A stretch of 54,743 nt of DNA, taken from the NCBI GenBank assembly GCA_025357215.1, contig JANXPR010000473.1:1-54743 (forward strand). Reading direction: 5' to 3'. The stretch is from Acidobacteriaceae bacterium. Lineage in GTDB: Bacteria; Acidobacteriota; Terriglobia; Terriglobales; Acidobacteriaceae. Under the pieces are notes generated by a model. It worked only from the letters and a program-made list of their open reading frames with translations, was not told the DNA's origin and made no database searches. Shown piece by piece: positions 16,599 to 46,264 of the stretch. Positions within the stretch are counted from its first letter, which is position 1, and every line of letters begins with the position of its first letter. A program made the position numbers and the translations under genes.

Positions 16599-16599
16599 T

Positions 16600-23306: not shown

Positions 23307-23765
23307 ATGTTGAGGATCAGCAGGGCGGACTACGACTTGATCCGCTGGGAAGCCGAACGCAATTATCCGAACGAATGCTGCGGAATTCTTTTGGGCAATG
23401 TGATTGAAGGCGTGCGCCAGGTGAGTATGACGATTACCTGTGACAACGCGCGCACGGACTCGCTCGCCAACCGCTACAGTATCCGGCCGGATCAGGTGGT
23501 AGCCACCCAGAAACTGGCCCGGAGCCGCGGCGAAAACATCATCGGCTTCTACCACTCCCATCCCGACCACCCGGCGGACTATTCCCGGACCGACTTGGAT
23601 GAAGCTCACTGGTTTGACTGCTCTTATCTGATTATTTCCGTGGAGCGCGGCTCTCCCGGCGCCACCAGTTCTTTTGTGCTGCTGGGTGGAGAAGATCGCA
23701 AGAAGTTCGAGCAGGAAGCGATTCAGATTGTTGCGTACCGACAGCCGCTCAAAGTTGCCTTGTAA
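23307..23765 (+). CDS. JAMM/MPN+ metalloprotease (Mec+/QbsD/HcyD-like)
   Basis: ECCGILLG and the JAMM motif HSHPDHPADYSRTD. 152 aa. Confidence 0.88.
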   Translation: MLRISRADYDLIRWEAERNYPNECCGILLGNVIEGVRQVSMTITCDNARTDSLANRYSIRPDQVVATQKLARSRGENIIGFYHSHPDHPADYSRTDLDEAHWFDCSYLIISVERGSPGATSSFVLLGGEDRKKFEQEAIQIVAYRQPLKVAL

Positions 23766-30907: not shown

Positions 30908-32254
30908 TTATTGCGGGATCACCGGCGTCACCACTCCTGTGCTGGTATCGCCCGTCATGCCCAGCGCCTGAATAGGCGCATTGCCAGAAGTCACGGTCAT
31001 TCGCACCTTGACAGCACCCGCCGGGACTGGACCTGGGAACCAATCGGCTAGCACGTCACGCGTGATCTTCTTGCCAGCAGTTCCGCCAGCGGCAATACCC
31101 GGCAAGATAAAGTTGACTGGAGTTCCCACCGTAGCATTGCTGGCGTTCAGCAGCTCAATCTTGATCCCATCGTCAACTGCCGACGTATTCTGCAAAGAGA
31201 ATCCCGTAAATGTGGTGCCGCCTGTCACCAGTGGAATGGTCGCCGTGAGATACGTCGTCTTGGACGCATACATGGGATGCACCTGCGCCACCAGCGTATT
31301 GGAACTGGCTGGCAGAACATCGTCCCCGCGGAGGTAGCTGTAGTAGTCAATCTGGGTGGTGGGATTGTTGGTGGTGTCGCGCACGCGGATGCGTTCGCCA
31401 TCCAGTTGGAAAACCGGGCCGCCACCCGGGCAGGTTGCCGGAGCCGGTGTAGGCAGCACACCGTTGCATATCTTCACGTCAACTTCCGTGGCGCTGATCA
31501 ACGTGATGTCCACCGGCAGAATATTGGTGTCTTCAATCGCCACGCGCGTGTTGGCCGTGAATCCGCTGCCGAAAATCTTAATAAGAGTACGGTCCGGCAA
31601 AGAACCGCCCGCCGGCACTACGTCAGTGACATAGGGCGTACCGACACCGCCGATGGTCAAAAAGCCAGGACCGGTCGGCGGAAAGAGTGTGTACGGTGCT
31701 TGCGAGGCGTCGAAGAAAGAGGAATTGGCTAGGTCGAAATTGGCGAAAAACTGCTGTCCTTGCGCTCCGCTGATCACAGGCATCGAAAGGGTCAACAACG
31801 GGTAGGCGGTGGTGTTTCCCAGAGTGGAGCCCAGATTCGGTCCAACGAGCTGCACGGAAATATTCGTACCATTGATCACCGCGATGCCTGCGGCCAGTCC
31901 AGCGGGATCATTGAGCGCCGCGCCGCGTACCGGGCCTACCGGTCCGGCAGGAACCTGGGGACGTGTGCTGCCGTGGCCAATCGGTTTGGGTTCGGTGGTG
32001 GAAAGCTGGTATTGATAAATACCACCGACAGGAACCGTGCTATCCAGGACTTTGAATTCGATCGCGCCAGAAGGCAACGGCGTTGGAGTGGGCACGGGTG
32101 TAGGAACAGGTGTAGGCGTGGGAGTTGGCGTTGGCGTGGAACCGACGGCGCCACCTGATCCGCCGCAACCGGCAAGCGCCAGCACAGCGGATAGCACCAC
32201 GACAGAAAGACACGTTCTCCAGGCAAGCTGGGGTTGGCCTGCGCGACTAGCCAT
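30908..32254 (-). CDS. Lipoprotein with Pro/Thr linker and IPT/TIG-like Ig-fold region
   Basis: Lipobox LALAGCGG, linker PTPTPTPTPVPTPVPTPTP, and an IPT/TIG-like segment LIKIFGSGFTANTRVAIED. Confidence 0.6.
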   Translation of the reverse strand: MASRAGQPQLAWRTCLSVVVLSAVLALAGCGGSGGAVGSTPTPTPTPTPVPTPVPTPTPLPSGAIEFKVLDSTVPVGGIYQYQLSTTEPKPIGHGSTRPQVPAGPVGPVRGAALNDPAGLAAGIAVINGTNISVQLVGPNLGSTLGNTTAYPLLTLSMPVISGAQGQQFFANFDLANSSFFDASQAPYTLFPPTGPGFLTIGGVGTPYVTDVVPAGGSLPDRTLIKIFGSGFTANTRVAIEDTNILPVDITLISATEVDVKICNGVLPTPAPATCPGGGPVFQLDGERIRVRDTTNNPTTQIDYYSYLRGDDVLPASSNTLVAQVHPMYASKTTYLTATIPLVTGGTTFTGFSLQNTSAVDDGIKIELLNASNATVGTPVNFILPGIAAGGTAGKKITRDVLADWFPGPVPAGAVKVRMTVTSGNAPIQALGMTGDTSTGVVTPVIPQ

Positions 32255-32548: not shown

Positions 32549-34120
32549 ATGGGCGAACCCACCTACCTTCTTTCTGTGCCCGGCTACAAACCCGGCAAAA
32601 AAGCCTTGCTGGTCTTTTTTGAGACCGACTGCCCCACCTGTCAACTGGCGTTGCCTTACCTTAATTCACTCGACTCGAACGCCGTGCAGGTACTTGGCCT
32701 CTCTCAAGATGATGAGACACACACCCGGGCCTTTGTGGAACAACTAAATCTCAAATACCCGGTCAACGTGGACCGCGGCCTGAAGCTGACGCGGGAGTTC
32801 GACCCGCAATCCGTACCCACCATGTACCTGCTGGATGAAAGCGGTCACGTGCAAAGTAGTCTGATCGGGCTGGACAAAGCGGCCATGAACACAATGGCTG
32901 CGGCCCTGGGACAGAAGACCATTGCTCCTCTCGACGACGGGACGCCGGCCTGGAAACCAGGATGCGGTTCGCGGCATTTGGAACCCGCGACTCAGGATGG
33001 ACACAGCGGCGCCGGAGATGTAAGCGAGGAATCCGCGAACGGTCCGCTGCTGCGGCGCATCGCCGAACCCGCCAGCCGGATCACGCTGCGTGACGACGAA
33101 GATCCGTTCGAATACTGCATACAGAAATTTGGTGACGCGCTACCAGTCATCCCACCGACGGAAGCAAAAGTCTCTGCGATGGTGACGGCATCCGGACTCG
33201 CGGCGGAAAACGTGATAGCCCGCGTGCCTCCCGTATACGGCGAAGCTACAGTAGAAAAGATTGCCGCCAACGCTGTGATGGCCGGCTGCACACCGGAGAT
33301 GATGCGCGTCCTGCTGCCGCTGGTACGGGCTGTTTGCGACGAAAACTTTAACGCCCACGGCGTCCAGGCCACCACGCATTTCGCCGCGCCCATCATCATC
33401 ATCAACGGGCCGGTTCGGCAGGAATTGGGATTTTGGTGCAAGCAAAACGTCTTCAGCAACGTGGCCCGCGCTAACAGCACAGTTGGCCGCGCGCTACAGT
33501 TGATCCTGCTGAACCTGGGCGGCGGGCGTCCGGATGGCATTGATATGTCGGCGCTGGGCAACTCCGCGAAATTTTCCTGCTGCATTGCGGAAAACGAAGA
33601 AGAAAACCCCTGGGAACCGTTTCACGTGGACCGCGGATTGCAACGCGACCAAAGCGCGCTTAGCCTGTTTGCCGCGGAGCCTCCGCGCGGCGTGAGTGAA
33701 CATACCGCCCAAAAAGGCGCTGTGGTGCTCAAAGCAGTTTGCCAGGCGCTGGCCACGGTATGGAGCTACCGCATCTGCATGAACCACGAAGCGATTGTTG
33801 TGTTGTGTCCGGAACACGCCAAGACGCTGGCGCGCGACGGCTTCACCAAACAACAAGTCCGGCAATTTCTTTTTGAAAATACCGGCGTGCCCAAGCGGCT
33901 CTACGCGGAAAAAGATACCGGCGAAGGCACGCAACTCGTCCCTTACTATCGCGAGATCATGATTCAGGGCGAGCCTTGTTACCAGAAATTCCGCTCGGCT
34001 GAATCGATTCACATCGTGGTCACCGGCGGGACGGCAGGAAAGTTTTCCGCTGTGCTGGGCAGCTGGGCTGTTGGACCAACAGGCAGTCAACTCGTCACAT
34101 ATCCAATTTCACCGAAGTAA
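32549..34120 (+). CDS. Fusion protein: N-terminal thioredoxin-fold (TlpA/redoxin-like, CPTC) domain plus ~380-aa uncharacterised Cys-rich C-terminal domain
   Basis: The N-terminal part reads KALLVFFETDCPTCQLALPYLNSL...VPTMYLLDESG. The C-terminal part has VEKIAANAVMAGCTPEMM, NAHGVQATTHFAAPIIIINGP and KFSCCIAENEE, and I recognised no family. Confidence 0.75.
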   Translation: MGEPTYLLSVPGYKPGKKALLVFFETDCPTCQLALPYLNSLDSNAVQVLGLSQDDETHTRAFVEQLNLKYPVNVDRGLKLTREFDPQSVPTMYLLDESGHVQSSLIGLDKAAMNTMAAALGQKTIAPLDDGTPAWKPGCGSRHLEPATQDGHSGAGDVSEESANGPLLRRIAEPASRITLRDDEDPFEYCIQKFGDALPVIPPTEAKVSAMVTASGLAAENVIARVPPVYGEATVEKIAANAVMAGCTPEMMRVLLPLVRAVCDENFNAHGVQATTHFAAPIIIINGPVRQELGFWCKQNVFSNVARANSTVGRALQLILLNLGGGRPDGIDMSALGNSAKFSCCIAENEEENPWEPFHVDRGLQRDQSALSLFAAEPPRGVSEHTAQKGAVVLKAVCQALATVWSYRICMNHEAIVVLCPEHAKTLARDGFTKQQVRQFLFENTGVPKRLYAEKDTGEGTQLVPYYREIMIQGEPCYQKFRSAESIHIVVTGGTAGKFSAVLGSWAVGPTGSQLVTYPISPK

Positions 34121-34146: not shown

Positions 34147-34677
34147 ATGCCGATCACTCTTGTTCATCCGGGTAACGAAAAAGTGGCCACCGCAGCCGCG
34201 CCGCCACCGCGACTTAGCACGCTGAGCGGAAAAAAAATCGGCCTGCTGGACATCAGCAAGCCGGGTGGCAGCCACTTCCTTGATCGCATGGAACAACTGT
34301 TGCGCCAAACTTACGGCGCTGCGGACGTTGTCCGCGTAAAGAAGCCCACATATACCAAGAATGCTCCGCAAGCGGTCATTGATCAGTTGCGTGGCATGGA
34401 CGCAGTCATCGAAGGTTTGGCCGATTGAGGATCGTGCACAACGTGCAGTTTGCACGATACGGTCCGCCTAGAGAATCTTGGAATACCCGCTGTAGCCGTC
34501 GCGACCACGGAATTCATGGCGCCCGCGCGAATTCAAGCTGGAGCGCTGGGACGTCCGGGCTTTGACGCTATTTACGTTCAACATCCGATCCAGGACCAGA
34601 CGCTGGAGCAGATTGCCGCGCGCGCGGATGCCGTGGCTGCGGAGATCGTGAAGCGACTAACCACAGCCGGGAAGTGA
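34147..34677 (+). CDS. UGSC-family selenoprotein (TGA 34426-34428 read as selenocysteine; 176 aa)
   Basis: Track ORFs 34147..34428 and 34450..34677 are in the same frame with no other stop between them. The joined sequence is ...DAVIEGLAD-U-GSCTTCSLHDTVRLENLGIPAVAVATTEF.... A hairpin follows the TGA directly. Confidence 0.8.
34431..34458 (+). promoter_or_regulatory. Bacterial SECIS-like stem-loop
   Basis: AUCGUGCA-C-AAC[GUGCA]GUU-UGCACGAU: an 8-bp stem, a bulged C, a 3-bp stem and a 5-nt apical loop beginning GU. It starts 2 nt after the UGA codon (at 34431). Confidence 0.65.
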
Positions 34678-34848: not shown

Positions 34849-35721
34849 ATGACTTCCACTTCTGCTTCCTCCGGCACCAAGACCCAAACCCAGACCGCGG
34901 CAACATCCGCGAAAAAGAAAATCGCGGTGCTGGGTTGCGGCAAGATGGGCACCATTTTGCTCCAGGGATTTTTGCAACACGGTCTGATCGCCAAAGGCGA
35001 AGCCGTGGCCACGGTGCAGCATGAAGAACATCGCCGCGAACTTTCGCGCGAGCTGGGCGGGGTGACCGTAACGACCGACAACCGCGCGGCCGTCCACGGA
35101 GCGCCGACCGTCCTGCTGGGCGTGAAGCCGCAAGCGTTGCCCGCATTGCTGGAAGAGATCACGCCAGAGCTTGCGCCGGACACGCTGATCATTTCGATTG
35201 CCGCGTCCACCACGACGGGATTCATTCAGGAAAAAATCGGCAAAGATGCGCATGTAGTCCGTGCCATGCCCAACACTCCGGCCATGGTCGGCGCGGCGAT
35301 GACCGCGTTGTGTGCCGGACGCTCCGTCCGCAAAGAACATTTGGAAACCGTGAAGAAGCTGTTTGAAAGCGTGGGCCGCGCGGTGATCGTTGACGAAAAA
35401 CACATGGACGCCATTACGGCGCTTTCCGGCAGCGGTCCGGCGTTCGCGTTTGTGATACTGGAATCCATGGCCGAAGCCGGTGTAAGTGTGGGACTGCCGC
35501 GCGAACTGGCGACAACTCTTGCCGCGCAGACTTTGTTTGGCGCGTCCAAGCTGGCGCTGGAAACCGGACACCATCCTGCGCTGCTCAAAGACGCTGTAAC
35601 CACGCCCGCTGGATGCACCATTGAAGGCCTGATCGAGCTGGAAAAAGGCGGCCTGCGTGTGACACTGATGAACGCCATCATCAAGACGACGATTCGGGCC
35701 AGGGAGTTGATGAACAGCTAA
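34849..35721 (+). CDS. proC: Pyrroline-5-carboxylate reductase
   Basis: KIAVLGCGKMGTILLQG, RAMPNTPAMVG, ALSGSGPAFAF and TTPAGCTIEGL. Confidence 0.93.
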   Translation: MTSTSASSGTKTQTQTAATSAKKKIAVLGCGKMGTILLQGFLQHGLIAKGEAVATVQHEEHRRELSRELGGVTVTTDNRAAVHGAPTVLLGVKPQALPALLEEITPELAPDTLIISIAASTTTGFIQEKIGKDAHVVRAMPNTPAMVGAAMTALCAGRSVRKEHLETVKKLFESVGRAVIVDEKHMDAITALSGSGPAFAFVILESMAEAGVSVGLPRELATTLAAQTLFGASKLALETGHHPALLKDAVTTPAGCTIEGLIELEKGGLRVTLMNAIIKTTIRARELMNS

Positions 35722-35724
35722 AAC

Positions 35725-35775
35725 AATCGGGTGATCTGATGATCGCGAGTGATCCGGTGATCGGGAAACCAATCC
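35725..35775. repeat. Short GTGATC-type repeat cluster
   Basis: GGGTGATCTGATGATCGCGAGTGATCCGGTGATCGGG, immediately 3' of proC. Confidence 0.6.
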
Positions 35776-35825
35776 CACCGTGGAGACGCGGAGGCACGGA
35801 GAAGACCTGGGCAGCGCAACGTTTC

Positions 35826-35875
35826 CGCAATTTTCAATTTTGGCAATTCCGGCGATTTTGGCAATTCTGCAAGGA
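35826..35875. repeat. Short GGCAATT-type repeat cluster
   Basis: GCAATTTTCAATTTTGGCAATTCCGGCGATTTTGGCAATTCTGC. Similar GGCAATT motifs occur at 25107-25122. Confidence 0.6.
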
Positions 35876-35908
35876 GTTAGCTATCCTGCATACCTCCCAC
35901 CCTTTCCC

Positions 35909-35937
35909 TTGCCCAACCGTCCATCCTTATATATAGT
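35909..35937 (+). promoter_or_regulatory. Candidate sigma70 promoter TTGCCC-17-TATAGT
   Basis: The -35 box is at 35909-35914 and the -10 box at 35932-35937. The leader-peptide ATG lies only 9 nt downstream. Confidence 0.45.
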
Positions 35938-35946
35938 AATGACCTG

Positions 35947-36030
35947 ATGTTTACTCCTGTCGCCAACATGGCCATGTGCTGTCACACCATGGCTATGCGT
36001 GTGTTCACACAAAGGCAGACAGGTTCATAA
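35947..36030 (+). CDS. Met/Cys-rich leader peptide (27 aa) of a putative transcription attenuator
   Basis: MFTPVANMAMCCHTMAMRVFTQRQTGS* has 5 Met and 2 Cys in the first 17 residues. An intrinsic terminator follows 25 nt later. Confidence 0.55.
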   Translation: MFTPVANMAMCCHTMAMRVFTQRQTGS

Positions 36031-36055
36031 GCAAAGATTCATTCAGCAATTTTTG

Positions 36056-36092
36056 AACCCGCTGCCTCAGGGCAAGCGGGTTTTGTGCTTTT
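36056..36092 (+). terminator. Intrinsic terminator (attenuator) in the 5' leader of the ThrC-paralogue operon
   Basis: AACCCGCTGCC-TCAG-GGC(A)AGCGGGTT followed by TTGTGCTTTT. It lies about 95 nt upstream of ATG 36188. Confidence 0.65.
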
Positions 36093-36187
36093 GGGCCGGA
36101 AGAATCGGACTAAAGCAAGCTAGCAGACAGCGCAGCCGACGAGACATACCTGAGAGCAGCAGAAAACCGAGAGAAGATAAAAAGATC

Positions 36188-37522
36188 ATGAGCAATCAAG
36201 CCAGCACCAAGCCGAAACCGACGCAATTCTACGAACTGCGATGTCGCGAATGCCATACGCCGTGGGGCAACCAGCCGATTTCCTTCTGCCAGAAATGTTT
36301 CGCTCCGCTGGAAGTAGTGTACGACTGGGCGAGCATCAAGCCGCTAATCAGTCGCGACGAAATTGCCCGCCGCGGCACCACGCTGTGGCGCTACAAGGAA
36401 CTGCTTCCGCTTCCCGATGAATACGACGCTTCGCTTCCAGTGGGCTTCACGCCCCTGGTAAAAGCCGCGAACCTGGGTGACGCTCTTCCCGGCGGCAGCG
36501 CGCGCAACAAATCGTTGTACCTAAAAAATGACGCTTCCTGTTTCCCCACGTTGAGCTTCAAGGACCGCGTGGTGGCCGTGGCTCTGGCGCAGGCGCGCAA
36601 CTTCGGGTTTGAAGTCGTCAGTTGCTCTTCCACCGGCAACCTGGCGAACGCCGTTGCGGCGCAAGCCGCGCGCGGCGGATTCAAAGCCTGCGTGTTCATC
36701 CCGTCTGATCTGGAGTCCGCCAAAGTCTTGGGCACGGAGGTCTACGGCGCGCAGATCGTCCGCATTGCCGGCAATTATGACCACGTGAATCGCCTGTGCT
36801 CGCAGATCGCGGACAAACACCGCTGGGGATTTGTGAACGTAAACCTGCGGCCATACTATGCCGAAGGCTCGAAGACCGTAGGTTATGAAATTGCCGAACA
36901 ACTCGGCTGGCGCCTGCCGGACAACGTTGTCGTCCCCATGGCCGGCGGGTCTTTGATTACGAAAATCTACAAGGCGTTCAAAGAACTGGTAGAACTGGGC
37001 CTGGTGGAAGCCAAGAACGTCAAGTTCTTTGGCGCGCAAGCCACCGGCTGCAGCCCAATCAGTACTGCCGTTAAAGCCGGACGCAACGAGATCCAGCCGC
37101 AGAAGCCGGCAACAATTGCGCGCTCGCTGGCCATCGGCAACCCGGCGGACGGATTCTACGCGGCCCGCACTATCGCCAGCACCGGCGGCTGGGCGGAAGA
37201 CGCAAGCGATCCGGAAATTGTGGACGGCATCGCTCTGCTGGCCGAAACCGAAGGCATCTTCACGGAGACCGCGGGCGGCGTGACCGTGGCTTCCGCGCGC
37301 AAGCTCTACGCGCAAGGCCGCATCAAGCCGGAGGAAACTACCGTGCTCTGCATCACCGGCAACGGACTCAAGACCACCGACGCACTCGTCGGACGTTATG
37401 AAGCTTCCGAGCCCATCGCGCCAAAACTGGCGGCGCTTGAAGAATATCTTGAACAAAAACTGGTTGGCGTCTATGAAGCGTTTGGCGAAGCCCGCGCCGG
37501 AGCGCGTGGAGGTGTGCTGTGA
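36188..37522 (+). CDS. Threonine-synthase-family PLP enzyme with N-terminal zinc ribbon (paralogue; candidate sulfur-carrier-dependent homocysteine/cysteine synthase)
   Basis: CRECH...CQKC zinc ribbon and PLP-lysine context FPTLSFKDRVVAVAL, with ThrC-like sequence throughout. Start set at ATG 36188 because the track's upstream extension overlaps the leader and terminator. Confidence 0.85.
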   Translation: MSNQASTKPKPTQFYELRCRECHTPWGNQPISFCQKCFAPLEVVYDWASIKPLISRDEIARRGTTLWRYKELLPLPDEYDASLPVGFTPLVKAANLGDALPGGSARNKSLYLKNDASCFPTLSFKDRVVAVALAQARNFGFEVVSCSSTGNLANAVAAQAARGGFKACVFIPSDLESAKVLGTEVYGAQIVRIAGNYDHVNRLCSQIADKHRWGFVNVNLRPYYAEGSKTVGYEIAEQLGWRLPDNVVVPMAGGSLITKIYKAFKELVELGLVEAKNVKFFGAQATGCSPISTAVKAGRNEIQPQKPATIARSLAIGNPADGFYAARTIASTGGWAEDASDPEIVDGIALLAETEGIFTETAGGVTVASARKLYAQGRIKPEETTVLCITGNGLKTTDALVGRYEASEPIAPKLAALEEYLEQKLVGVYEAFGEARAGARGGVL

Positions 37523-37791
37523 GCGTTACCGTTTCAATTCCGTCGGCCTTCCGGCGGCACACAGAAGGCCTGGATCGCTTTGATGCATCCGCGGCGAACA
37601 TTAATGAACTCCTGGACGTTCTGGGCAATCGCTTCCCTGAACTCAAGCCGCACCTGCGCGATGAGCAAGGCAACGTCCGGCGCTTTCTGAATATTTACGT
37701 CAACGACGAAGACATCCGTTTTCTGGACAAGGACTACAAGTTCGCCGAAGGCGATGACGTAACGCTAGTGCCATCAATTGCAGGGGGGTAG
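37519..37791 (+). CDS. MoaD/ThiS-family ubiquitin-like sulfur-carrier protein ending in Gly-Gly
   Basis: 90 aa ending ...DDVTLVPSIAGG*. Its GTG start overlaps the upstream stop (GTGA), which suggests translational coupling. Confidence 0.85.
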   Translation: MSVTVSIPSAFRRHTEGLDRFDASAANINELLDVLGNRFPELKPHLRDEQGNVRRFLNIYVNDEDIRFLDKDYKFAEGDDVTLVPSIAGG

Positions 37792-37858
37792 GGCGAGTAT
37801 CGCTTACTGATTCGGCGGATTTACGGGTCGGATTGGAGCCACTTCGCTTCTAGCCTCT

Positions 37859-38094
37859 GTCATACTGAGCGCCGCTCGAGCGCGCCATGCAATGCGAGAG
37901 CAAGTCGAAGTATCCCGAGAATGTTTGATCGACGATGAAGATTCAGGGAGTTTCACCGAATCTTCCTGACGAAACAAGCCTTGGGCGCGACTGGATGGTG
38001 AGAACTCCCCGCTGCAGTATCGTCGAGGAAACATCCTCGGGATCTTTCGACTTCGCTCCGCCTGCTAACGTAGCGTCGCTACGCTCAAGATGAC
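37859..38094. repeat. Pair of ~65-bp imperfect inverted repeats (dispersed repeat family) between convergent operons
   Basis: Arm 1 (37859-37925) runs GTCATACTGAGCG...AAGTCGAAGTATCCCGAGAATGTT. The reverse complement of arm 2 (38030-38094) runs GTCATCTTGAGCG...AAGTCGAAAGATCCCGAGGATGTT. Each arm has an internal palindrome. Confidence 0.7.
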
Positions 38095-38173
38095 AGGGGG
38101 CAACGATTGGCATTGGTGTTCATAGGCCCGAATGCCTTCCGCAAAACGCTGCGCGGATGCGGAGCGTAAGAAT

Positions 38174-38992
38174 CTACGCCAGCAACTCCAGGCGCTTCAC
38201 GTCGCTTCGGTTTTCGTCTGATTCCGCCAGTACTGGCGGAAGAAATTCACGCGCATCAATTCCTTGCTCGCCCGGCACGCGTCGCGCGACTTCGCCCACA
38301 ATCAAAATGGCCGGCGCGGCCACGCCACCGGCAAACGGCAAATCCAGTAAAGACATGAAGCATGTTTTCTGGTTGGCGCGCCCTGCGCTGGAGATCAGGA
38401 CCACGGGCGCGTTGCAATCCACGCCGGCTTCCATCAATTCGCGCGCTGTCTTGTTGTAGTCCGGTCCCGGCATGTAGACGGCAAAAGTTGTGCGCTGGGG
38501 ATCAAGCCCCGGGGTTCGGAGCTTGTCGCCACGGATGTTGTGTCCGGTAACGATCGCCAGCGCTGACGCCGAGTTGCGATCGGTGAGCGTGATGCCCGCC
38601 GTGGAAGCCGCCGCCGATGCCGCCGTAACGCCCGGCACGATTTCATAGGCTACGCAGGCCTTGCGCAGCGCGTCGAGTTCTTCACCCAGTCGTCCGAAAA
38701 CCGCAGGATCACCGGACTTGAGACGCACCACGGCCTTGCCCCGGCGCGCGTGCCAGATCATGAGAGCGTTAATCTGGGCTTGGTTGATTTGACCCTGACT
38801 GTTCGTCCGGTTGCCGCAACGTTTGCCAACGTTCACAATTCTGGCATCAGGCGCGGCTAGGGCGAGAATCTCCGGGGTCACCAGATCGTCATGCAAAACG
38901 ACCTGGGCCGCGCGTAACACTGCTGCGGCCCGCACCGTGAGCAAATCAGCCGAGCCTGGCCCGGCGCCTACGAGATGGACTTTCCCCGGCAC
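38174..38992 (-). CDS. cobA: Uroporphyrinogen-III C-methyltransferase (SUMT)
   Basis: VHLVGAGPGSADLLTVRAA...VVLHDDLV and VVRLKSGDPAVFGR. Confidence 0.92.
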   Translation of the reverse strand: MPGKVHLVGAGPGSADLLTVRAAAVLRAAQVVLHDDLVTPEILALAAPDARIVNVGKRCGNRTNSQGQINQAQINALMIWHARRGKAVVRLKSGDPAVFGRLGEELDALRKACVAYEIVPGVTAASAAASTAGITLTDRNSASALAIVTGHNIRGDKLRTPGLDPQRTTFAVYMPGPDYNKTARELMEAGVDCNAPVVLISSAGRANQKTCFMSLLDLPFAGGVAAPAILIVGEVARRVPGEQGIDAREFLPPVLAESDENRSDVKRLELLA

Positions 38993-39067
38993 TTAGTCGT
39001 GCTTCTCTCCAGCGCTTTCGCGCTTGTTTTCTTCGAGCATCCACGCACTTTTCTTTCTAACGAGAAC

Positions 39068-39289
39068 TTAGGCGCTCTTCATTTTTCGGGGAACGCTCAC
39101 GCGGCCACCTTCATATGAAACGCTACGCGCTTTTGCGAGAAGTGCGCTCTTCGTCCAGCCACTGTTCCACGGCCGAAAGAATGCGGCCACCAGTTGGTCC
39201 ACACCGCCGATCATGTGCAGACCTTCGTGCTGGTGCTCTTTCAATGCTTCGCGAATCTTGGTTTCCAATGGGGTTGCTTTCAGACTCAT
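39068..39289 (-). CDS. Small hypothetical protein (73 aa) inside the siroheme/sulfite reductase operon
   Basis: Start set at the internal ATG 39289 (MSLKATPLETKIREALKEH...), with GAGAGGTG just upstream. No recognised domain. Confidence 0.5.
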   Translation of the reverse strand: MSLKATPLETKIREALKEHQHEGLHMIGGVDQLVAAFFRPWNSGWTKSALLAKARSVSYEGGRVSVPRKMKSA

Positions 39290-39326
39290 GTTCACCTCTC
39301 GTTTCGGTTCACGTACTTTAGTTGGT

Positions 39327-39908
39327 TCACTCACTAACAAAAGACTTCGGCCTGCATAGTGCAATCAGATGCAGCAACTGCTTGCGGCGTTCGCCAGCCG
39401 GGAGTACATGGCGGAGGGTTGTCCGTATGCGCCCCAGCCACTCGGCGAATGGGCCAAACTCCGGCCCGTACTGCCGTTCCAAATTTTTTCGCACTTGCTG
39501 GGCCAGCGCCGGACTTTGTCCGCCGGTGGAAATGGCGATCTGAAACTCACCGCGGCTAACCACGGATGGCGTGTAGTAATCGCAGTATGCGGGATCATCC
39601 ACGGCATTGCCCAAAGCGCCGGCTTGCTGCGCGTCTTGATAGACTGCCCGATTTACGGCTTCCAATTCTGTGGCGCCGATCACCAGGAAAAAGTGACGCG
39701 CCATGCCAGCCTGGTACTCGGTTTCTTTGTGCTTGAGTAGGCCTTGCGCTGCCCACTGGGCGATGCGCGGCGAGATGCGCGGCGAAACAACGGTCACGTC
39801 CGTGGCCGAGCGCAACACGCCTTCCAGCTTTTCTTCGCCGATGTTTCCGCCGCCGACAACCAATACCTTGCGGCCTTCGAGTTTGAGAAAAATCGGATAG
39901 AGGGCCAT
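39327..39908 (-). CDS. Precorrin-2 dehydrogenase / sirohydrochlorin ferrochelatase (CysG N-terminal-type, SirC-like)
   Basis: MALYPIFLKLEGRKVLVVGGGNIGEEKLEGVL, a Rossmann-type motif typical of the siroheme synthase N-domain. Confidence 0.88.
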   Translation of the reverse strand: MALYPIFLKLEGRKVLVVGGGNIGEEKLEGVLRSATDVTVVSPRISPRIAQWAAQGLLKHKETEYQAGMARHFFLVIGATELEAVNRAVYQDAQQAGALGNAVDDPAYCDYYTPSVVSRGEFQIAISTGGQSPALAQQVRKNLERQYGPEFGPFAEWLGRIRTTLRHVLPAGERRKQLLHLIALCRPKSFVSE

Positions 39909-39916
39909 GTTTGTTT

Positions 39917-41689
39917 TTATCCTTCCGCTCCGTGGGGTACGCGACCCGGAGCTGCATCGCGCGCCACGGGAGCAACCGTTTCGCCCGCGAGGAACGTCCG
40001 AAGCTCCGCGTCCGAATGCCGCAAAAAAAACTTGCGCAGATTTTCGTTGGCTTCGCGCCGGACAAGATATTCGCGCAGCAAGCGCTCAATGGCGTCTGGG
40101 GCTTCCGTGGCCACGCAGCGGTAACCGACCGGCCTGCCAAACGCCGCGTATTCACCGACGGCGCCGCCCAGGCAGAAGTAGTAGGCGTCCTGCATGCGGC
40201 CATCGACTTTTAACTTCTTGCCTTCCAGACCGATGTCCGCGATGCGATGCTGCCCGCAGCTGTTGGGGCAACCGGTTACGTTGATCTTGAGCGGCTGGTC
40301 GAATTCCGGGAGACGTTCTTCCAGTTCGTCCACGAGCCAGCGCGTGTAGGACTTGGTTTCCGTGATGGCCAGCTTGCAGAACTCCGTTCCGGTGCAAGCC
40401 ACCGCGCCGCGCCAGAACGGCGAAGCTGTAACGTGAAGTCCGGCGTTTTCCAGGCCCTGAACCACGGCTTGCGTTCTTGCCTGAGGCACGTTCACGATCA
40501 CCAGGTTCTGCGCGATGGTAGCGCGCAGGTCGCCGGAACCGTATTGCTCGGCGAGATCGGCGGCGGCACGCAGTTGCTCCGGCGAGATGCGACCGCGCAA
40601 CACAGCAGCGCCAACGTAAAAAAGCCCCGGCAGTTTTTGCGGATGGACGCCGGCATGATCGCGAAATACATCTGCCGGAATTTCTTCCGGCACGCCCGGC
40701 GCGAGTTTGAATCCCAGCCGGCGCTCAACTTCGGCGAGAAAGCTTTCCGCCGTCCAGCCGTGTTGCAGGAAAAGAAATTTCAGACGGGCGCGTTCGCGAT
40801 TTTGGCGCAATGGCTCCGCGTTGCGAAAAATCTCGCTGATGGCTTTGGTCACCGGCAACATCTGTTCCCAGGCGACAAAAGCGTTCAGGCGCACGGCGAG
40901 GTGCGGATCAGTGGAAAGGCCGCCGACGACGCGGACGGAAAAGCCGATTTCCTTTTTGCCACCCTCGTCCTCACCACGAACTTCGCGTACGGCCGGAGTG
41001 AAAGCCAGATCGTTGATTTCTGGATAAGAGCACCAGTCGCGGCAACCGCTCACGCTGATTTTGTACTTGCGCGGAAAGTTGTAATAATCCGCGCTGCCGA
41101 CCAACAGCTTTTCCATCTGGGCCACAAGTGGCGAGGCGTCACAGATTTCGTGCGCGTCCAAACCAGCCAGCGGGCAGCCAGTGATGTTGCGAGTAACATC
41201 ACCGCATGTGGCAAGCGAAGTTAGACCCACGGCATCCAGTTGCTCCAAAACGTCCGGCAGATCCTGCACGGTGATCCAATGGAGCTGAATGTTCTGACGC
41301 ACCGTGATGTCCGCGGAACCGCGCGCGTATTTTTCTGACAATTCGGCGATCGTACGCAACTGGCGGGCACTGACGATCCCGTTACCTAGACGTATGCGCA
41401 GCATGAGGAAAGGCAGGGCTTTGCCTTCACCGTTGGCACCGCCGAGAACACCAGCGCCATCACCTTGCGTGTACACGCCCCACCAGCGGAAGTACGTCTT
41501 GATCCAGGCTTCAGGAACTTCGGTGAAGCCTCCGCGCGCAAAGCTCCGGATTTCTTCCAGACACTCCCAGGGATTTTTTTCGCGCTTGAGCCGCTCGGCC
41601 TTCTGCGCCTTGCTTTCCTTCACTACAGTACCGGGTGTGCCGATGGCCTGTGTGACCGTTGCTTGTGATCCGTTTATTTCCAAACCCAT
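39917..41689 (-). CDS. sir: Assimilatory sulfite reductase (ferredoxin-type nitrite/sulfite reductase, siroheme/4Fe-4S)
   Basis: Cluster-binding motifs CTGTEFCKLA and TGCPNSCGQH, with duplicated NIR_SIR-type sequence. Start set at ATG 41689 because the track's TTG 41728 lies in the terminator U-tract. Confidence 0.9.
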   Translation of the reverse strand: MGLEINGSQATVTQAIGTPGTVVKESKAQKAERLKREKNPWECLEEIRSFARGGFTEVPEAWIKTYFRWWGVYTQGDGAGVLGGANGEGKALPFLMLRIRLGNGIVSARQLRTIAELSEKYARGSADITVRQNIQLHWITVQDLPDVLEQLDAVGLTSLATCGDVTRNITGCPLAGLDAHEICDASPLVAQMEKLLVGSADYYNFPRKYKISVSGCRDWCSYPEINDLAFTPAVREVRGEDEGGKKEIGFSVRVVGGLSTDPHLAVRLNAFVAWEQMLPVTKAISEIFRNAEPLRQNRERARLKFLFLQHGWTAESFLAEVERRLGFKLAPGVPEEIPADVFRDHAGVHPQKLPGLFYVGAAVLRGRISPEQLRAAADLAEQYGSGDLRATIAQNLVIVNVPQARTQAVVQGLENAGLHVTASPFWRGAVACTGTEFCKLAITETKSYTRWLVDELEERLPEFDQPLKINVTGCPNSCGQHRIADIGLEGKKLKVDGRMQDAYYFCLGGAVGEYAAFGRPVGYRCVATEAPDAIERLLREYLVRREANENLRKFFLRHSDAELRTFLAGETVAPVARDAAPGRVPHGAEG

Positions 41690-41724
41690 GGTTCCCACTT
41701 TCTCGAACGCTTGCCTGGTTTCTC

Positions 41725-41770
41725 CCAAAAAAGCAAAAGGCCCATCACCTTGTCTGGCGATGGGCCCTTC
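41725..41770 (-). terminator. Intrinsic terminator (attenuator) in the 5' leader of the sulfite reductase operon
   Basis: The minus strand reads GGGCCCATC-gccagacaaggt-GATGGGCC followed by TTTTGCTTTTTTGGG, about 35 nt upstream of ATG 41689. Confidence 0.65.
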
Positions 41771-41957: not shown

Positions 41958-43169
41958 TTAATGAGTTTTTGCGACTCCCACGCCACTTGTTGCATCGCCA
42001 GATCGGGTTGTTTGCGGCGATGCGCTGTTCCTGGTTTTGATTACCGCTTGTATCGGCTCAAGGAACCGGCTGTATTTAGCCAAGGTGACTTGATCGTTGG
42101 AAGCGAGTGCGGCTTGCACGGCTTTTTGCGTTGCCGGACTGACAATTTCAAGCCTTCCAACAAAAACGCGAACCGTCTGCGCCGGAGATGGCGCGATCGT
42201 CAGAGGCAGAATGCTGTCCACGAAGGATGGCGGCACAATGTAAAACAAGCGGGAGCCTTCTTCAAACCACGTGCTGCGCCAAGTCTCAAGCATGGCATGC
42301 GCTTCGTCAGGATAAAGGCCGTTTTCAACCAGGATACTCTCCAGGTCGGCATAGAGCGATTCGACGGAGGAAGTCAGTTCTGGAAAATCCAGCAGGGTGG
42401 TCTCCTGAAGCGGACGTGACAGGCGATAGCCAACTTTATCTCCACGGCGCTCGAACAGGATGGCTGCCGGAATCTCTGCCTTGATCAATGGTTTGACCAA
42501 CAACCTGCCCTGAGGATCGATCTGGGCCGCGACCGGAACCCGCATCGCGGACACTCCACGATAGAAGAGGAATTTCTCATGCTGGTCACCCTTGGAACTG
42601 TTCACGCGGAGCGGCGTAGCTGAAGTTGCGCGGGCGGCATAGTAGTGATTATCACTGTCGCTGGTTTCGCGCAGGAAAGTGGCGGGGCCGGGCTCCAGGG
42701 AAACAGATTTCCATGCAAGAGTGGCGTTGCCCGTTCCAGAAAGCGTTCCGCCAGTCCATGCGGTATTCGGAGTAACGCGGGCGTGCGGGTACCATTCCGT
42801 GAAGAGTCCGTTGGCAAACGCCACTTGCACGGATACCGTCATGCTTCGCGGCGAGTAGAAATAAAGGACCGGCGTTTCCATCCGTACCGTGCCCCGTAAA
42901 CTTACCTTGAACCCTTCGGTCCGAAAATGTTCAACGAACCCAGGCAGATTCGGTCCGCTGAGCGGCGACCACTCAACGGCCAACCCGTCAACGCCGGCGA
43001 CGGAAGTAAACGTACCCCATTCGTGGACCGTGAGTGCGGGATCAACTATCCGCGATTGGGCGTTCCCACACTGTGCCAGCAGCCCCGAGAGGATGATCAC
43101 CAGCGTCACGAAACGTAATACGAAACGAAATGAAAAATGAAGAAGGTGATTGTGCTGGGAAGTGTTCAT
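41958..43169 (-). CDS. Hypothetical secreted protein
   Basis: Start set at MNTSQHNHLLHFSFRFVLRFVTLVIILSGLLAQCGNAQS (signal peptide). No recognised domain. Confidence 0.6.
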   Translation of the reverse strand: MNTSQHNHLLHFSFRFVLRFVTLVIILSGLLAQCGNAQSRIVDPALTVHEWGTFTSVAGVDGLAVEWSPLSGPNLPGFVEHFRTEGFKVSLRGTVRMETPVLYFYSPRSMTVSVQVAFANGLFTEWYPHARVTPNTAWTGGTLSGTGNATLAWKSVSLEPGPATFLRETSDSDNHYYAARATSATPLRVNSSKGDQHEKFLFYRGVSAMRVPVAAQIDPQGRLLVKPLIKAEIPAAILFERRGDKVGYRLSRPLQETTLLDFPELTSSVESLYADLESILVENGLYPDEAHAMLETWRSTWFEEGSRLFYIVPPSFVDSILPLTIAPSPAQTVRVFVGRLEIVSPATQKAVQAALASNDQVTLAKYSRFLEPIQAVIKTRNSASPQTTRSGDATSGVGVAKTH

Positions 43170-43455
43170 GTTCGCTACCGCCTTTTCCAAAAGCCTTTCG
43201 CTTTTCGAACAAGGACGCGCCATCTGCGCAAACTGTTAGCGAGCGAAGGCGATTCGCCGATTTTGGTTTGGTTGAAGCGGGCAAGTTATTAGGACGGCTT
43301 AATCTCCAGCGAGAAATGGCAGCCCGGGCGAAGCCCTGTGGGCGAAAAAAACGCGGCTATTACGCTAGCTACAAATCCATCTAACAGCATGAAAACTCAA
43401 GGGAATCGCGCATGCACGAAGGAGTTACCTCGGTTCGCGTCGTCCACGCTTTTCC

Positions 43456-43493: not shown

Positions 43494-43595
43494 ATGCACC
43501 GGAATCAGAACATCGCGATGGCCAAGACATGCATGTGCACAACAGGCACAGGCACAACTACATCCATGCGATTTTCTGGCGAGCCGGTGAGATAA
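43494..43595 (+). CDS. Thr-rich (plus Met/Cys) leader peptide (33 aa) of the thr operon attenuator
   Basis: MHRNQNIAMAKTCMCTTGTGTTTSMRFSGEPVR* has 7 Thr within 12 residues, plus a CMC motif. Confidence 0.6.
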   Translation: MHRNQNIAMAKTCMCTTGTGTTTSMRFSGEPVR

Positions 43596-43623: not shown

Positions 43624-43663
43624 AACCCACTCGCCCAATCAAGCGAGTGGGTTTTTCGCTTTT
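43624..43663 (+). terminator. Intrinsic terminator (attenuator) upstream of thrB
   Basis: AACCCACTCGC-ccaatcaa-GCGAGTGGGTT followed by TTTCGCTTTT. The track ORF start at 43647 falls inside it. Confidence 0.7.
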
Positions 43664-43751
43664 ATGCGGTGAGGATTTGGAGACATCCCCGGGGATGAAT
43701 GGCGTAAGTCCTTATTTTTCGGGGATGACCGGGGTAGGGGTACAAATAGGC

Positions 43752-44729
43752 ATGAGCAAAATTGATCACAGCTTTGACAGCAGCGCCGTTCGCGACACTG
43801 GTTACGGATGGCGCGCGGTAGTCCCGGCGACTTCAGCTAATCTGGGCTGCGCGTTTGACTGCGGAGGACTCGCGCTCAAGCTGTACCTGAAAGCCCTGTT
43901 CGTCCCCGGTGAAGGCGAGCAGCTGGCTCTGGAATACAAAGGCGTGACCCCGGACCGTTTCCCCACCGACGACTCCAACCTGATCCTACATGCTTTGCGT
44001 TTTGCGGCAGCCGAACTTGACGTGCCTCCTCCCGCCGGAAAAGTCTTTGTCGAAAGTGAAATCCCTATCAGCGTTGGACTGGGCAGCAGCGCTGCCGCGG
44101 TGATCGCCGGCCTGCTTCTGGGCGCACGCTACTCCGGAAAAGACGCCCCGGCGGAAGACATACTGCGTTGGGCGGAAAAGATTGAAGGCCATATCGACAA
44201 CGCGGCAGCCGCATATCACGGCGGACTGGTGCTGGCCCTGTCCAACAACGTGGAAAAAGTGCACTCGCTGAAAACGGATTTCCCGGAGAGCATCCGCCTG
44301 GTGGTGGTAAGTCCATCAGTAACTGTGCCCACGCACGAAGCACGACAGGTGCTGCCCAAGGCTTATGAACGAGCGGACGTCCTGCACACGCTGCAACGCA
44401 CCGCGCTGTTGGCCGCAACCTGCTTCTCCGGATATTTCGATCTCTTCCCTGAACTCTTCCATGACAAATTGCACCAGCCGTACCGGCAAAAACTGGTTCC
44501 CGGTATTGAGCGCTGCCTGAAATACCGGCGTGAAGGCTTGTTGGGAGTGGCCATCAGCGGATCAGGCTCGTCAGTAATTGCGTTCGTGACGAAGCACGAC
44601 GAACAGATCGCGGAAGATTTGCAGGAACTTTTCAATCTGGAAGGCGTGCAGACGGAAGCACGATCTACTTCAGCCGACAATCACGGCGCATGGGTGACAC
44701 GCGAACCGGTGGAAGCAAACAGAACGTAA
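43752..44729 (+). CDS. thrB: Homoserine kinase
   Basis: VPATSANLGCAFDCGGLAL and GLGSSAAAVIAG (GHMP kinase motif). Start set at ATG 43752, downstream of the terminator. Confidence 0.9.
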   Translation: MSKIDHSFDSSAVRDTGYGWRAVVPATSANLGCAFDCGGLALKLYLKALFVPGEGEQLALEYKGVTPDRFPTDDSNLILHALRFAAAELDVPPPAGKVFVESEIPISVGLGSSAAAVIAGLLLGARYSGKDAPAEDILRWAEKIEGHIDNAAAAYHGGLVLALSNNVEKVHSLKTDFPESIRLVVVSPSVTVPTHEARQVLPKAYERADVLHTLQRTALLAATCFSGYFDLFPELFHDKLHQPYRQKLVPGIERCLKYRREGLLGVAISGSGSSVIAFVTKHDEQIAEDLQELFNLEGVQTEARSTSADNHGAWVTREPVEANRT

Positions 44730-44794: not shown

Positions 44795-46264
44795 ATGAGC
44801 AGCAGACGCTTGATCGTGATGAAATTTGGGGGCACGTCCGTGGGCAACGCGGAACGTATCCGCCAGTGTGCGCAGATTGTGAGTCAGGCGGCGCAGCAGG
44901 ACCGCATTGTGGTGGTGGTATCCGCCATGGCCGGTATCACAGATCTGATCTTCAAGACTATTGATGCCGCGCGGCAGGGCGACGCCGCTTCTACTGAGAC
45001 GAACCTGAAAAAGTTTGAGGCGCTGCACCGCGAGTTGATGGCCGAGTTGTTTGGCGCTTCCGCGCCCGCCGCTGTTGAGTTTCTGGCACAGGTAGTTGCC
45101 CAGTTACAGAAATCAAGCGGCGCGTTGCTTGCATTGCGGACGGACATCTCTGCACAGACCGCCGACTCGCTGGTCGCACTGGGTGAACGCATCACAGCTT
45201 GGGCATTAGCGAATTACCTTCAACAATCTGGCAGTCCGGCCGAATTTGTGGCCGCGGAAAAAGTAATCGCCACGGACGGCAACTTTGGCAACGCCGCTCC
45301 GGACATGGAAGGCACGCGAGCCAACTGCCAGTCCGAATTACTGCCGATCCTGGATCGCGGCGCTTCGCCCATCGTGGCAGGTTACAGCGGCGCTGCTCCT
45401 GGCGGCCAAACCACCACGCTGGGACGCGGCGGTTCAGATTATTCGGCTACGATCATCGGCGCGGCGGCCGGAGCCGACGAAGTCTGGATATGGACTGATG
45501 TTGACGGCGTCCTAACGGCCGATCCGCGCATTTGTCCGGACGCCACTACACTGCCGGAAATCACTTTTCCTGAAGCTATCGAGCTCGCGTATTACGGCGC
45601 CAAAGTTATCCATCCCAAAGCGTCTTATCCCGCGGCGGACGCCGGCTTCCCGGTGTGGATCAAGAATTCGTTTCGCCCGGAAGTCCAAGGCACCAAAATC
45701 ACCAATGACGCAACACCCTGGAATTCTCCGGTCAAGTCCGTGACGTGCGTGAAGAACGCAACGCTCATCACCATGGTCACCCGACGCGACGTGCATCCGG
45801 TAGATCTTTGGGGACGGCTGTTCCTGCGGCTTGGGCAGGAACAGGTTGAAGTACTGTTTGCCACGCAGTCTTCTCCGGAACATGCGCTTGGTCTAGTGTT
45901 GCGCAAAGAAGACAGCGCGCGAGTGCTCAAACTGATCAACACCACGTTCCGCATCGAACTGGCGCAAGGCGTGTTGTTGCCGGTGGAGGTGAACAACGAA
46001 ATTGCCGTGGTGGCCGTGCTGGGCGAATCCATGAAAGGCACCTGCGGCATTCTGGGACGCGTGTTTTCTGCCGTGGCCCGCGAAGAAGTAAGCGTGATTG
46101 CCGTGGCCCAGGGCGCCAGCGAGTTGAGCATATGCTTTGCCGTACCTGCTCCGGCAGCTTCGCAGGTGGTGCGCGCGGTGCATAATGAGTTTTGCGGCAA
46201 GGCGGATTTCTCAGTGCCGGTATGCCTGCGTCCCACGGCAGCGGCCGCTTCAGGAGCGCGATGA
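44795..46264 (+). CDS. lysC: Aspartate kinase
   Basis: LIVMKFGGTSVGNAERI, LGRGGSDYSATIIGAA, and C-terminal ACT-like repeats. SD AGGGAG precedes ATG 44795. Confidence 0.92.
   Translation: MSSRRLIVMKFGGTSVGNAERIRQCAQIVSQAAQQDRIVVVVSAMAGITDLIFKTIDAARQGDAASTETNLKKFEALHRELMAELFGASAPAAVEFLAQVVAQLQKSSGALLALRTDISAQTADSLVALGERITAWALANYLQQSGSPAEFVAAEKVIATDGNFGNAAPDMEGTRANCQSELLPILDRGASPIVAGYSGAAPGGQTTTLGRGGSDYSATIIGAAAGADEVWIWTDVDGVLTADPRICPDATTLPEITFPEAIELAYYGAKVIHPKASYPAADAGFPVWIKNSFRPEVQGTKITNDATPWNSPVKSVTCVKNATLITMVTRRDVHPVDLWGRLFLRLGQEQVEVLFATQSSPEHALGLVLRKEDSARVLKLINTTFRIELAQGVLLPVEVNNEIAVVAVLGESMKGTCGILGRVFSAVAREEVSVIAVAQGASELSICFAVPAPAASQVVRAVHNEFCGKADFSVPVCLRPTAAAASGAR

Follow-up and report, generated by a model that had tools for sequence, protein, structure and literature searches.

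A probable MetM/MetO-type homocysteine synthase system in an Acidobacteriaceae bacterium, apparently controlled by a methionine/cysteine leader

Background

What would a bacterium do with a second gene of the threonine synthase (ThrC) family when its threonine operon already holds one? The question is raised by a contig of an Acidobacteriaceae bacterium (JANXPR010000473.1, assembly GCA_025357215.1), of which positions 1 to 54,743 of the forward strand, hereafter the window, were analysed. At 36188..37791 the window carries a ThrC-like gene overlapping the gene of a small sulfur-carrier-like protein. A preliminary description, made from the sequence, had proposed that this pair is the acidobacterial equivalent of MetM/MetO, namely a homocysteine (or cysteine) synthase fed by a carrier thiocarboxylate and by O-phosphohomoserine from a neighbouring thrB gene.

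The MetM/MetO/Mec/MoeZ pathway of Streptomyces albulus was reported by Hasebe et al. in 2024 (Appl Environ Microbiol 90:e01247-24) and is summarised in the GapMind preprint (10.1101/2024.10.14.618325), according to which MetM is often misannotated as threonine synthase. A protein-thiocarboxylate-dependent synthesis of homocysteine by HcyS/HcyD/HcyF/MetY in Wolinella succinogenes is attributed to Krishnamoorthy and Begley (2011), as cited in PMC5764234. The analysis presented here indicates that the pair 36188..37791 is most probably a MetM/MetO-type homocysteine synthase system. The three genes on which the argument turns are the following.

36188..37522, forward strand: MetM-like ThrC-family enzyme dependent on pyridoxal phosphate (PLP); 444 aa, N-terminal Cys4 zinc ribbon, Schiff-base lysine K125 in SFKDR
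37519..37791, forward strand: MetO-like sulfur-carrier protein; 90 aa, beta-grasp of the ThiS/CysO type, C-terminus ...LVPSIAGG followed by the stop codon
46261..47583, forward strand: bona fide threonine synthase paralogue; 440 aa, retaining all ThrC signature residues, inside thrB-lysC-thrC-hom

Results

Two paralogues of the threonine synthase family

The 444-aa enzyme contains a PF00291 (PALP) domain (217 bits) and passes the TIGR00260 thrC model with 266.5 bits against a cut-off of 167.1, while its 280.7 bits against NF006050 remain under the cut-off of 303. Every named homologue in a large protein collection is labelled 'threonine synthase', a database label which the MetM-like family owes to the permissive cut-off of TIGR00260. 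The closest solved relatives are all threonine synthases, and K125 aligns with K61 of Thermus thermophilus ThrC; the best 25 of 34 model matches include no cysK or cysM model, and the top ones are all ThrC models. The preliminary description had noticed an N-terminal CxxC...CxxC zinc ribbon in both ThrC-family genes of the window, and the four cysteines (C19, C22, C34 and C37) are indeed invariant in alignment A1. It had also placed the other paralogue in a thrB-lysC-thrC-hom operon controlled by a threonine leader, which agrees with the gene order found and with a Thr-rich leader at 43494..43595. Threonine-responsive control fits the paralogue 46261..47583 and not 36188..37522, for which control of the Met/Cys or S-adenosylmethionine (SAM) kind is predicted.

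The MetM-like protein and the product of the window's own thrC share 32-33% identity, and up to 35% when relatives of the paralogue are included. The two were compared in an alignment set of 79 MetM-like proteins (from 80 genome loci), eight bona fide ThrC and 30 cluster representatives, the ThrC group being made up of the window's own paralogue, five proteins from related loci, and those of T. thermophilus (1UIM) and Bacillus subtilis (6CGQ). A neighbour-joining tree split the MetM-like set from the ThrC set in 100 of 100 bootstrap replicates, with a Micromonosporaceae (actinobacterial) representative branching beside the MetM-like clade. A phylogeny of both paralogues had been suggested as a check, and the enzyme falls outside bona fide ThrC. 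The split is accompanied by ten signature positions and a C-terminal motif, given below in T. thermophilus ThrC numbering as counts among the 8 ThrC and the 79 MetM-like proteins.

Position 88: T in 8/8 ThrC; L in 79/79 MetM-like
Position 155: S in 8/8 ThrC; V or I in 79/79 MetM-like
Position 157: N in 8/8 ThrC; R in 79/79 MetM-like
Position 160: R in 8/8 ThrC; Y in 79/79 MetM-like
Position 164: Q in 8/8 ThrC; S in 79/79 MetM-like
Position 188: N in 8/8 ThrC; G or S in 79/79 MetM-like
Position 191: N in 8/8 ThrC; L in 79/79 MetM-like
Position 242: R in 8/8 ThrC; A(S) in MetM-like, A in 78/79
Position 248: S in 8/8 ThrC; D in 79/79 MetM-like
Position 249: W in 8/8 ThrC; G in 79/79 MetM-like
C-terminal motif: TG[NH][GM]LKD in ThrC; TGNGLKT (77), TGQGLKT (1) and one gapped in MetM-like

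Residues T88, N154, S155, R160 and N188 of T. thermophilus ThrC are those which we take to hold the substrate or product phosphate, and the phosphate so held presumably assists the addition of water at C-beta. At these positions the window enzyme reads T88L, S155V, R160Y and N188G, with N154 alone retained, and the changes at 88, 155, 160 and 188 are common to all 79 clade members. A pocket remodelled in this way would be expected if the enzyme carries out a gamma-replacement instead of the ThrC reaction. On the alignment and the tree, the window enzyme is a member of a clade apart from true ThrC.

The adjacent sulfur carrier

The overlap of the two genes, previously described as GTGA, is confirmed by the coordinates: the GTG start of the carrier occupies 37519-37521 and the TGA stop of the enzyme 37520-37522, with a GGAGG 8 nt upstream of the start. 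The beta-grasp assignment is borne out by a match to the ThiS model PF02597 (42 bits), and the best solved relative is 4n6e_B, a ThiS/MoaD-family carrier (E 1.9e-16), with Mycobacterium tuberculosis CysO (3dwg_C) at E 8.3e-15. Matches to the moaD_arch and SAMP1 models are weak, that to TIGR01687 (moaD_arch) reaching 39.6 bits against a cut-off of 49.5, and no moaA, moaC, moaE, thiG/thiH, cysK or cysM was found among the scanned open reading frames (ORFs) of the window. A role as the MoaD of a molybdopterin operon, which had been named as a finding that would overturn the proposal, is highly improbable for the carrier; it is CysO-like, with no linkage to any moa gene among these ORFs.

Roughly half of the MetO-like carriers that could be delimited are GG-terminal, as is that of the window; unlike it, the remainder extend 1 to ~35 residues past IAGG. 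In these, C-terminal processing would be obligatory, presumably by a JAMM protease. Extended carriers occur among loci L006-L053, for instance L027:11247-11621, L030:3674-4051 and L033:10880-11251, and some of the tails are Cys-rich (...QEECICGD).

Conservation of the pair across phyla

A genome scan, in which neighbours were identified by tblastn with the window's own proteins as queries, gave 80 loci (numbered with the prefix L) from Acidobacteriota, Nitrospirota, Nitrospinota, Planctomycetota (including Brocadiaceae), Cyanobacteria, Deltaproteobacteria and others. In 71 of them the metM-like gene is immediately followed by one for a MetO-like carrier, and since this recurs in several phyla the adjacency goes far beyond chance. 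The carrier is not adjacent in the other 9 of 80, among which L011 stops at a contig edge. In many Acidobacteriota the carrier gene overlaps the enzyme gene or lies at most 2 nt from it. MoeZ and/or JAB genes follow the carrier on the same strand within 3 kb in L047, L049, L055, L063, L073 and L082, and a separate true thrC is present in L001, L004, L046, L052, L069 and L077 as well.

Clade members from Cyanobacteria are 54-56% identical to the window protein and those from actinobacteria ~50-55%. A homologue search started from the actinobacterial representative returned only Micromonosporaceae, and a search of a plasmid collection only Nonomuraea.

SAM-I riboswitches and thrB connect the clade to methionine

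In four of seven loci tested, Rfam identified a SAM-I riboswitch (RF00162, 69-96 bits) immediately 5' of the metM-like gene. A covariance model of our own, built from these four riboswitches, recognised the element in 39 of the 80 loci, each time on the coding strand and next to the metM-like gene on its 5' side, and over 1.5 Mb it had no match at any other site. Homoserine kinase joins this arrangement in five loci, all among the 39: metM-metO-thrB operons stand behind a SAM-I riboswitch in L020, L040 and L045, and metM-thrB operons in L022 and L041. SAM control of a homoserine kinase would be meaningless unless methionine were made from O-phosphohomoserine.

Similar layouts were seen in actinobacteria. 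In Nonomuraea gerenzanensis a SAM-I riboswitch is followed by the metM-like gene and by a 91-aa carrier ending in PAVAGG, in agreement with the riboswitch upstream of S. albulus metM mentioned in PMC12172450, and in Micromonospora coriariae the riboswitch precedes a metM homologue with no adjacent carrier.

Helper genes in the window and the proposed chemistry

The genes which would complete the pathway in the window, together with those surrounding the pair, are listed below.

23307..23765, forward strand: Mec-like JAMM/Prok-JAB metalloprotease, 152 aa, motif HSHPDHPADYSRTD; proposed adduct-releasing enzyme
23930..25102, forward strand: MoeZ-like adenylyltransferase/sulfurtransferase, 390 aa, ThiF plus rhodanese; proposed thiocarboxylate former
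34849..35721: proC, upstream of the pair
38174..38992, reverse strand: cobA, convergent with the pair
39327..39908, reverse strand: siroheme synthase N-terminal-like gene, convergent with the pair
39917..41728, reverse strand: NirA/SirA-type sulfite reductase, convergent with the pair; sulfide-supply context
43752..44729, forward strand: thrB (homoserine kinase), TIGR00191 220 bits; proposed O-phosphohomoserine source

The JAB and MoeZ-like genes lie ~11-13 kb upstream of metM-metO, and the MoeZ-like protein scores 520.7 bits against NF005902 (MoeZ), below the curated cut-off of 647; both would serve the carrier 37519..37791. In the relative L001 (GCA_041481995.1, enzyme 84% identical), JAB, AAA-protein and MoeZ genes stand just upstream of proC-metM-metO. 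The AAA protein of L001 (5331-6782, between JAB and MoeZ) is a 483-aa AAA-plus-AAA_lid_6 ATPase; redoxin-domain and UGSC-family proteins adjoin, and their homologues in the window are encoded at 32549..34120 and 34147..34428. The sulfite reductase/siroheme block (38174..41728, reverse strand), which the pair had been said to face and with which it is convergent, recurs in L001 and L004. For thrB the longest ORF begins at 43647, and the probable start is the ATG at 43752.

In the proposed mechanism, the MoeZ-like enzyme (23930..25102) would adenylate the C-terminal Gly-Gly of the carrier and convert it to a thiocarboxylate, the sulfur coming ultimately from the adjacent sulfite reductase branch. 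The ThrC-like PLP enzyme would bind O-phosphohomoserine made by ThrB and eliminate phosphate, after which the carrier thiocarboxylate would attack C-gamma, in place of ThrC's addition of water at C-beta. The Mec-like JAMM protease (23307..23765) would then resolve the carrier-homocysteine adduct, and the homocysteine would be methylated to methionine. We infer the chemistry from the CysO/CysM/Mec, HcyS/MetY and MetM/MetO precedents; O-phosphohomoserine as the substrate of the pair, and the attenuation mechanism described below, are to be read as equally conditional.

Alternative explanations

If the annotation were taken at face value, the enzyme would be a redundant or specialised threonine synthase and its neighbour an unrelated MoaD/ThiS protein for molybdopterin or thiamin. 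A TIGR00260 score above cut-off, solved relatives which are all threonine synthases, and the weak moaD_arch and SAMP1 matches of the carrier would be accommodated by such an explanation. It is nevertheless highly improbable: the equivalents of T88, S155, R160 and N188, whose phosphate role we assume, are replaced in every clade member, a true thrC is already present in the thr operon, and the orthologues are found under SAM riboswitches and not under threonine control, while the absence of moa, thiG and thiH from the scanned window ORFs, the moaD_arch score below cut-off and the cross-phylum adjacency speak against an unrelated carrier. The sulfur source raises a different possibility, that of an O-phosphohomoserine sulfhydrylase using free sulfide, which could do without the carrier or would use it only as an alternative sulfur donor protected from oxidation. 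The neighbouring sulfite reductase yields sulfide, and an adjacent carrier is missing in the nine loci mentioned (L011 at a contig edge) and in M. coriariae; the 71 of 80 loci with an adjacent carrier, its overlap or spacing of at most 2 nt in many Acidobacteriota and the co-operonic MoeZ and JAB genes of several phyla argue the other way, and this reading is considered very unlikely.

The preliminary description had left the product as homocysteine or cysteine, and the proposal can be limited to the first of these. A cysteine-forming analogue of CysM/CysO, in which a ThrC-like enzyme would combine O-phosphoserine with the carrier thiocarboxylate, could draw on the presence of CysO among the closest solved relatives of the carrier, on the 2-3 Cys codons of the leader described below, on the position of the locus beside sulfite reductase and on the Mec-like and MoeZ-like genes. 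The enzyme, however, is of the ThrC family and not CysK/CysM, its orthologues are preceded by SAM-I riboswitches, which are markers of methionine/SAM regulons, thrB is co-operonic in five loci with no serine-pathway gene seen (the queries being window proteins only), and the leader has more Met than Cys codons, so that a cysteine synthase appears very unlikely. Since sulfite reductase is adjacent, cysteate synthase, a ThrC-family enzyme using a sulfur oxyanion, was also weighed as a candidate, and was rejected at 53.7 bits against the TIGR03844 cut-off of 324.9.

The interpretation as an acidobacterial MetM/MetO equivalent with O-phosphohomoserine supplied by thrB is thus supported in silico by the clade, the SAM-I riboswitches, the five thrB operons and the MoeZ/Mec genes. 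Several observations weigh against it. The main caution comes from Microcystis, whose homologue shares 51.6% identity with S. albulus MetM; for this protein PMC12172450 reports threonine deaminase activity and, in the one published test, unclear MetM behaviour. The link to S. albulus MetM is indirect, as the orthology would follow from the actinobacterial and cyanobacterial members of the clade with their signature and from the riboswitch-metM-metO layout. Given their distance, the MoeZ-like and JAB genes of the window could serve another carrier. Rfam found in the window only two nadA riboswitches, distant from the pair, and no SAM riboswitch. The Cys codons beside Met in the leader make a cysteine-linked control possible, and minimum-free-energy folding of the leader region with its full terminator, even with a masked ribosome footprint, always kept the terminator.

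A Met/Cys leader in place of the riboswitch

The covariance model had no match in the window, nor in the four close relatives scanned, L001 and L003-L005 (L002 is a short copy of L001). The region upstream of the enzyme gene holds the following elements, all on the forward strand.

35909..35937: promoter-like site from a promoter scan; TTGCCC, 17 nt spacer, TATAGT
35947..36030: Met/Cys leader ORF, MFTPVANMAMCCHTMAMRVFTQRQTGS, 27 codons
35956..35964: attenuator segment 1, CCUGUCGCC; codons just 5' of the Met/Cys block, pairs with segment 2
35965..35997: leader regulatory block NMAMCCHTMAM; 4 Met and 2 Cys codons within 11 codons
36013..36025: attenuator segment 2, AGGCAGACAGGUU; immediately before the leader stop, pairs with segment 1 or the terminator 5' arm
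36056..36092: intrinsic terminator, AACCCGCUGCC, loop, GGCAAGCGGGU, then the U-run UUUUGUGCUUUU; its 5' arm is segment 3

A Met/Cys leader in front of the enzyme gene had been noticed before, and it could be located in this ORF, which is followed by a hairpin and a U-run. Not counting the start, its 27 codons include six for Met or Cys; the Cys codons of the leader number 2-3 and the Met codons are more numerous. The leader peptide is conserved in the close relatives L001 and L003-L005 (enzyme identity at least 83%), and a metagenome search with a degenerate-codon pattern for NMAMCC[HR][TA]MAM matched 27 further loci. The copies amount to 33 in all (32 distinct sites), with a metM-like gene next in 27 of the 27 which had enough downstream sequence. 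The TTGCC -35 and TAnAnT -10 elements, at constant spacing, are kept in 26 distinct upstream sequences; the -10 element ends 8-9 nt ahead of the leader ATG (9 in the window) and there is no Shine-Dalgarno sequence, for which reasons the leader ORF is probably leaderless.

Three mutually exclusive helices (1:2, 2:3 and 3:4) can form in this region. Duplex 1:2 has -14.2 kcal/mol in the window and -11 to -21 in 27 of 29 variants, and duplex 2:3 has -18.3 kcal/mol in the window and -15 to -19 in 27 of 29, a fixed window for segment 2 having missed L004 and L097; the terminator stem 3:4 is conserved at -21 to -25 kcal/mol. Extended to the leader stop codon, segment 2 reads AGGCAGAnAGGUU. Were a ribosome to stall on the Met/Cys block, segment 1 would be covered and segment 2, left free, would pair with the terminator's 5' arm, allowing read-through. 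A ribosome reaching the leader stop would cover segment 2, so that the terminator would form and transcription would stop. On these sequence features, a leader-peptide transcription attenuator appears to control metM-metO in the lineage of the window. As equilibrium folding keeps the terminator, antitermination could only arise kinetically, as it does in classical attenuators, and covariation support for the helices is thin because the copies are closely related. A simple terminator scan of 35700..38200 flagged no site, probably because the stem of 36056..36092 is bulged, and the terminator rests on folding and conservation. Literature searches turned up attenuators with Cys codons and none with Met codons.

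Upstream of the metM-like gene, ten acidobacterial loci, among them L016, L018, L019, L023, L025, L029, L035, L039 and L050, lack both the SAM-I riboswitch and the Met/Cys leader. Rfam, applied to eight of the ten (L050 being outside that scan), found no known upstream element, and when nine were screened for leader ORFs under relaxed criteria nothing convincing emerged. The flanks of L018 hold a lysine riboswitch at 4870-5058 (reverse strand) and an Acido-Lenti-1 RNA at 16960-17005 (forward strand).

The threonine operon leader and the branch point

Two elements precede thrB in the window.

43494..43595, forward strand: thr-operon leader ORF, MHRNQNIAMAKTCMCTTGTGTTTSMRFSGEPVR, including ...AMAKTCMCTTGTGTTTSM...; 7 Thr in 13 residues
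~43625..43665, forward strand: terminator-like hairpin plus U-run, between the thr leader and thrB

In the thr leader, Met and Cys codons stand directly before the Thr run, a layout also present in the thr leaders of L001, L084 and L093. The layout is compatible with a common need for the homoserine branch; taken alone, these codons do not discriminate between methionine routes. It is an evenly balanced proposition that in Candidatus Angelobacter-like Terriglobia a leaderless Met/Cys attenuator replaced the SAM-I riboswitch which serves metM-metO in sister lineages and that, together with the thr leader, ribosome stalling and not an RNA binding a metabolite would coordinate the O-phosphohomoserine branch point between threonine and methionine.

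Other features of the window

Between the convergent metO and cobA genes lies a nested inverted-repeat element of ~246 nt (37854..38099), present as a single copy in the window, with two pairs of arms, one of 18 nt (83% complementary), the other of 51 nt (76%). The element folds as one long hairpin (-117.9 kcal/mol, z-score -7.7) and may be an insertion resembling a miniature inverted-repeat transposable element, or a bidirectional terminator. The nadA riboswitches are in tandem (RF03013, 60.6 and 49.7 bits) at 16606..16717 on the reverse strand, upstream of the quinolinate synthase gene nadA (15465..16697). Two reverse-strand ORFs of 420-448 aa, 30908..32254 and 41958..43223, have no Pfam or NCBIfam match, and 41958..43223 opens the minus-strand run which holds the sulfite reductase.

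Discussion

The MetM/MetO kind of system was already described in 2024, and the acidobacterial pair is a further member of it. What is new here is the residue signature, the wide distribution of the clade, often downstream of a SAM riboswitch, and what appears to be the substitution of a leaderless Met/Cys attenuator for that riboswitch in one lineage. The MetM-like clade extends to abundant soil Acidobacteriota, nitrite oxidisers, anammox Planctomycetota and Cyanobacteria, and reading its members as MetM/MetO alters the reconstruction of methionine and sulfur assimilation in these groups: methionine routes that now look incomplete would be filled, or threonine synthases that now look redundant would no longer do so. 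The 10-position signature, combined with the SAM-riboswitch linkage, offers a practical rule for re-annotation. If the attenuator is real, it would be, as far as the literature shows, the first described methionine-sensing leader-peptide attenuator and a natural case of a riboswitch exchanged for an attenuator on orthologous genes, and the two differently coded leaders might illustrate how the threonine/methionine branch point is controlled.

Comparison with known systems

The closest parallel is the MetM/MetO system of S. albulus which, as far as the cited summaries describe it, shares with the window a ThrC-homologous PLP enzyme and a GG-ended carrier, MoeZ and Mec helpers, O-phosphohomoserine as the implied substrate, and the misannotation as threonine synthase. 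The window differs in its phylum, in the GTGA overlap of the genes, in a carrier which is already GG-terminal, in having a Met/Cys leader instead of a SAM riboswitch, and in the position of the pair between proC and the sulfite reductase and thr operons. The riboswitch-metM-metO layout of the actinobacterium Nonomuraea is shared with most acidobacterial orthologues.

With CysO/CysM/Mec/MoeZ of M. tuberculosis the window has in common a CysO-like carrier, a MoeZ-type ThiF-rhodanese activator, a JAMM protease and the logic of a thiocarboxylate donor serving a PLP enzyme which acts on a phosphorylated amino acid; unlike CysM, the PLP enzyme is of the ThrC family, with O-phosphohomoserine as the presumed substrate and homocysteine as the presumed product. 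The HcyS system of Wolinella, in the outline given by PMC5764234, also combines a carrier thiocarboxylate, a metalloprotease and an adenylating enzyme, whereas there MetY, a fold type I enzyme of the O-acetylhomoserine sulfhydrylase family, is the PLP enzyme and acts on an acyl-homoserine. ThrC itself (T. thermophilus 1UIM/1V7C, B. subtilis 6CGQ) shares with the window enzyme the fold, the PLP lysine and the presumed O-phosphohomoserine substrate, but ten signature positions near the phosphate and PLP-phosphate sites are replaced in the latter, and clade, regulation and gene partner differ.

As for the leader, both the polycysteine leaderless short-ORF attenuators of mycobacteria (Canestrari et al., bioRxiv 10.1101/834739) and the classical thr/his/trp attenuators resemble it in using codons of the end product and alternative pairings which depend on ribosome position. 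The mycobacterial ones further share the short ORF, leaderless there and probably so in the window, upstream of sulfur-amino-acid genes. The leader of the window differs from them in being mainly Met (4) plus Cys (2-3), and its output is apparently the termination of transcription, whereas the mycobacterial attenuators mask the ribosome-binding site.

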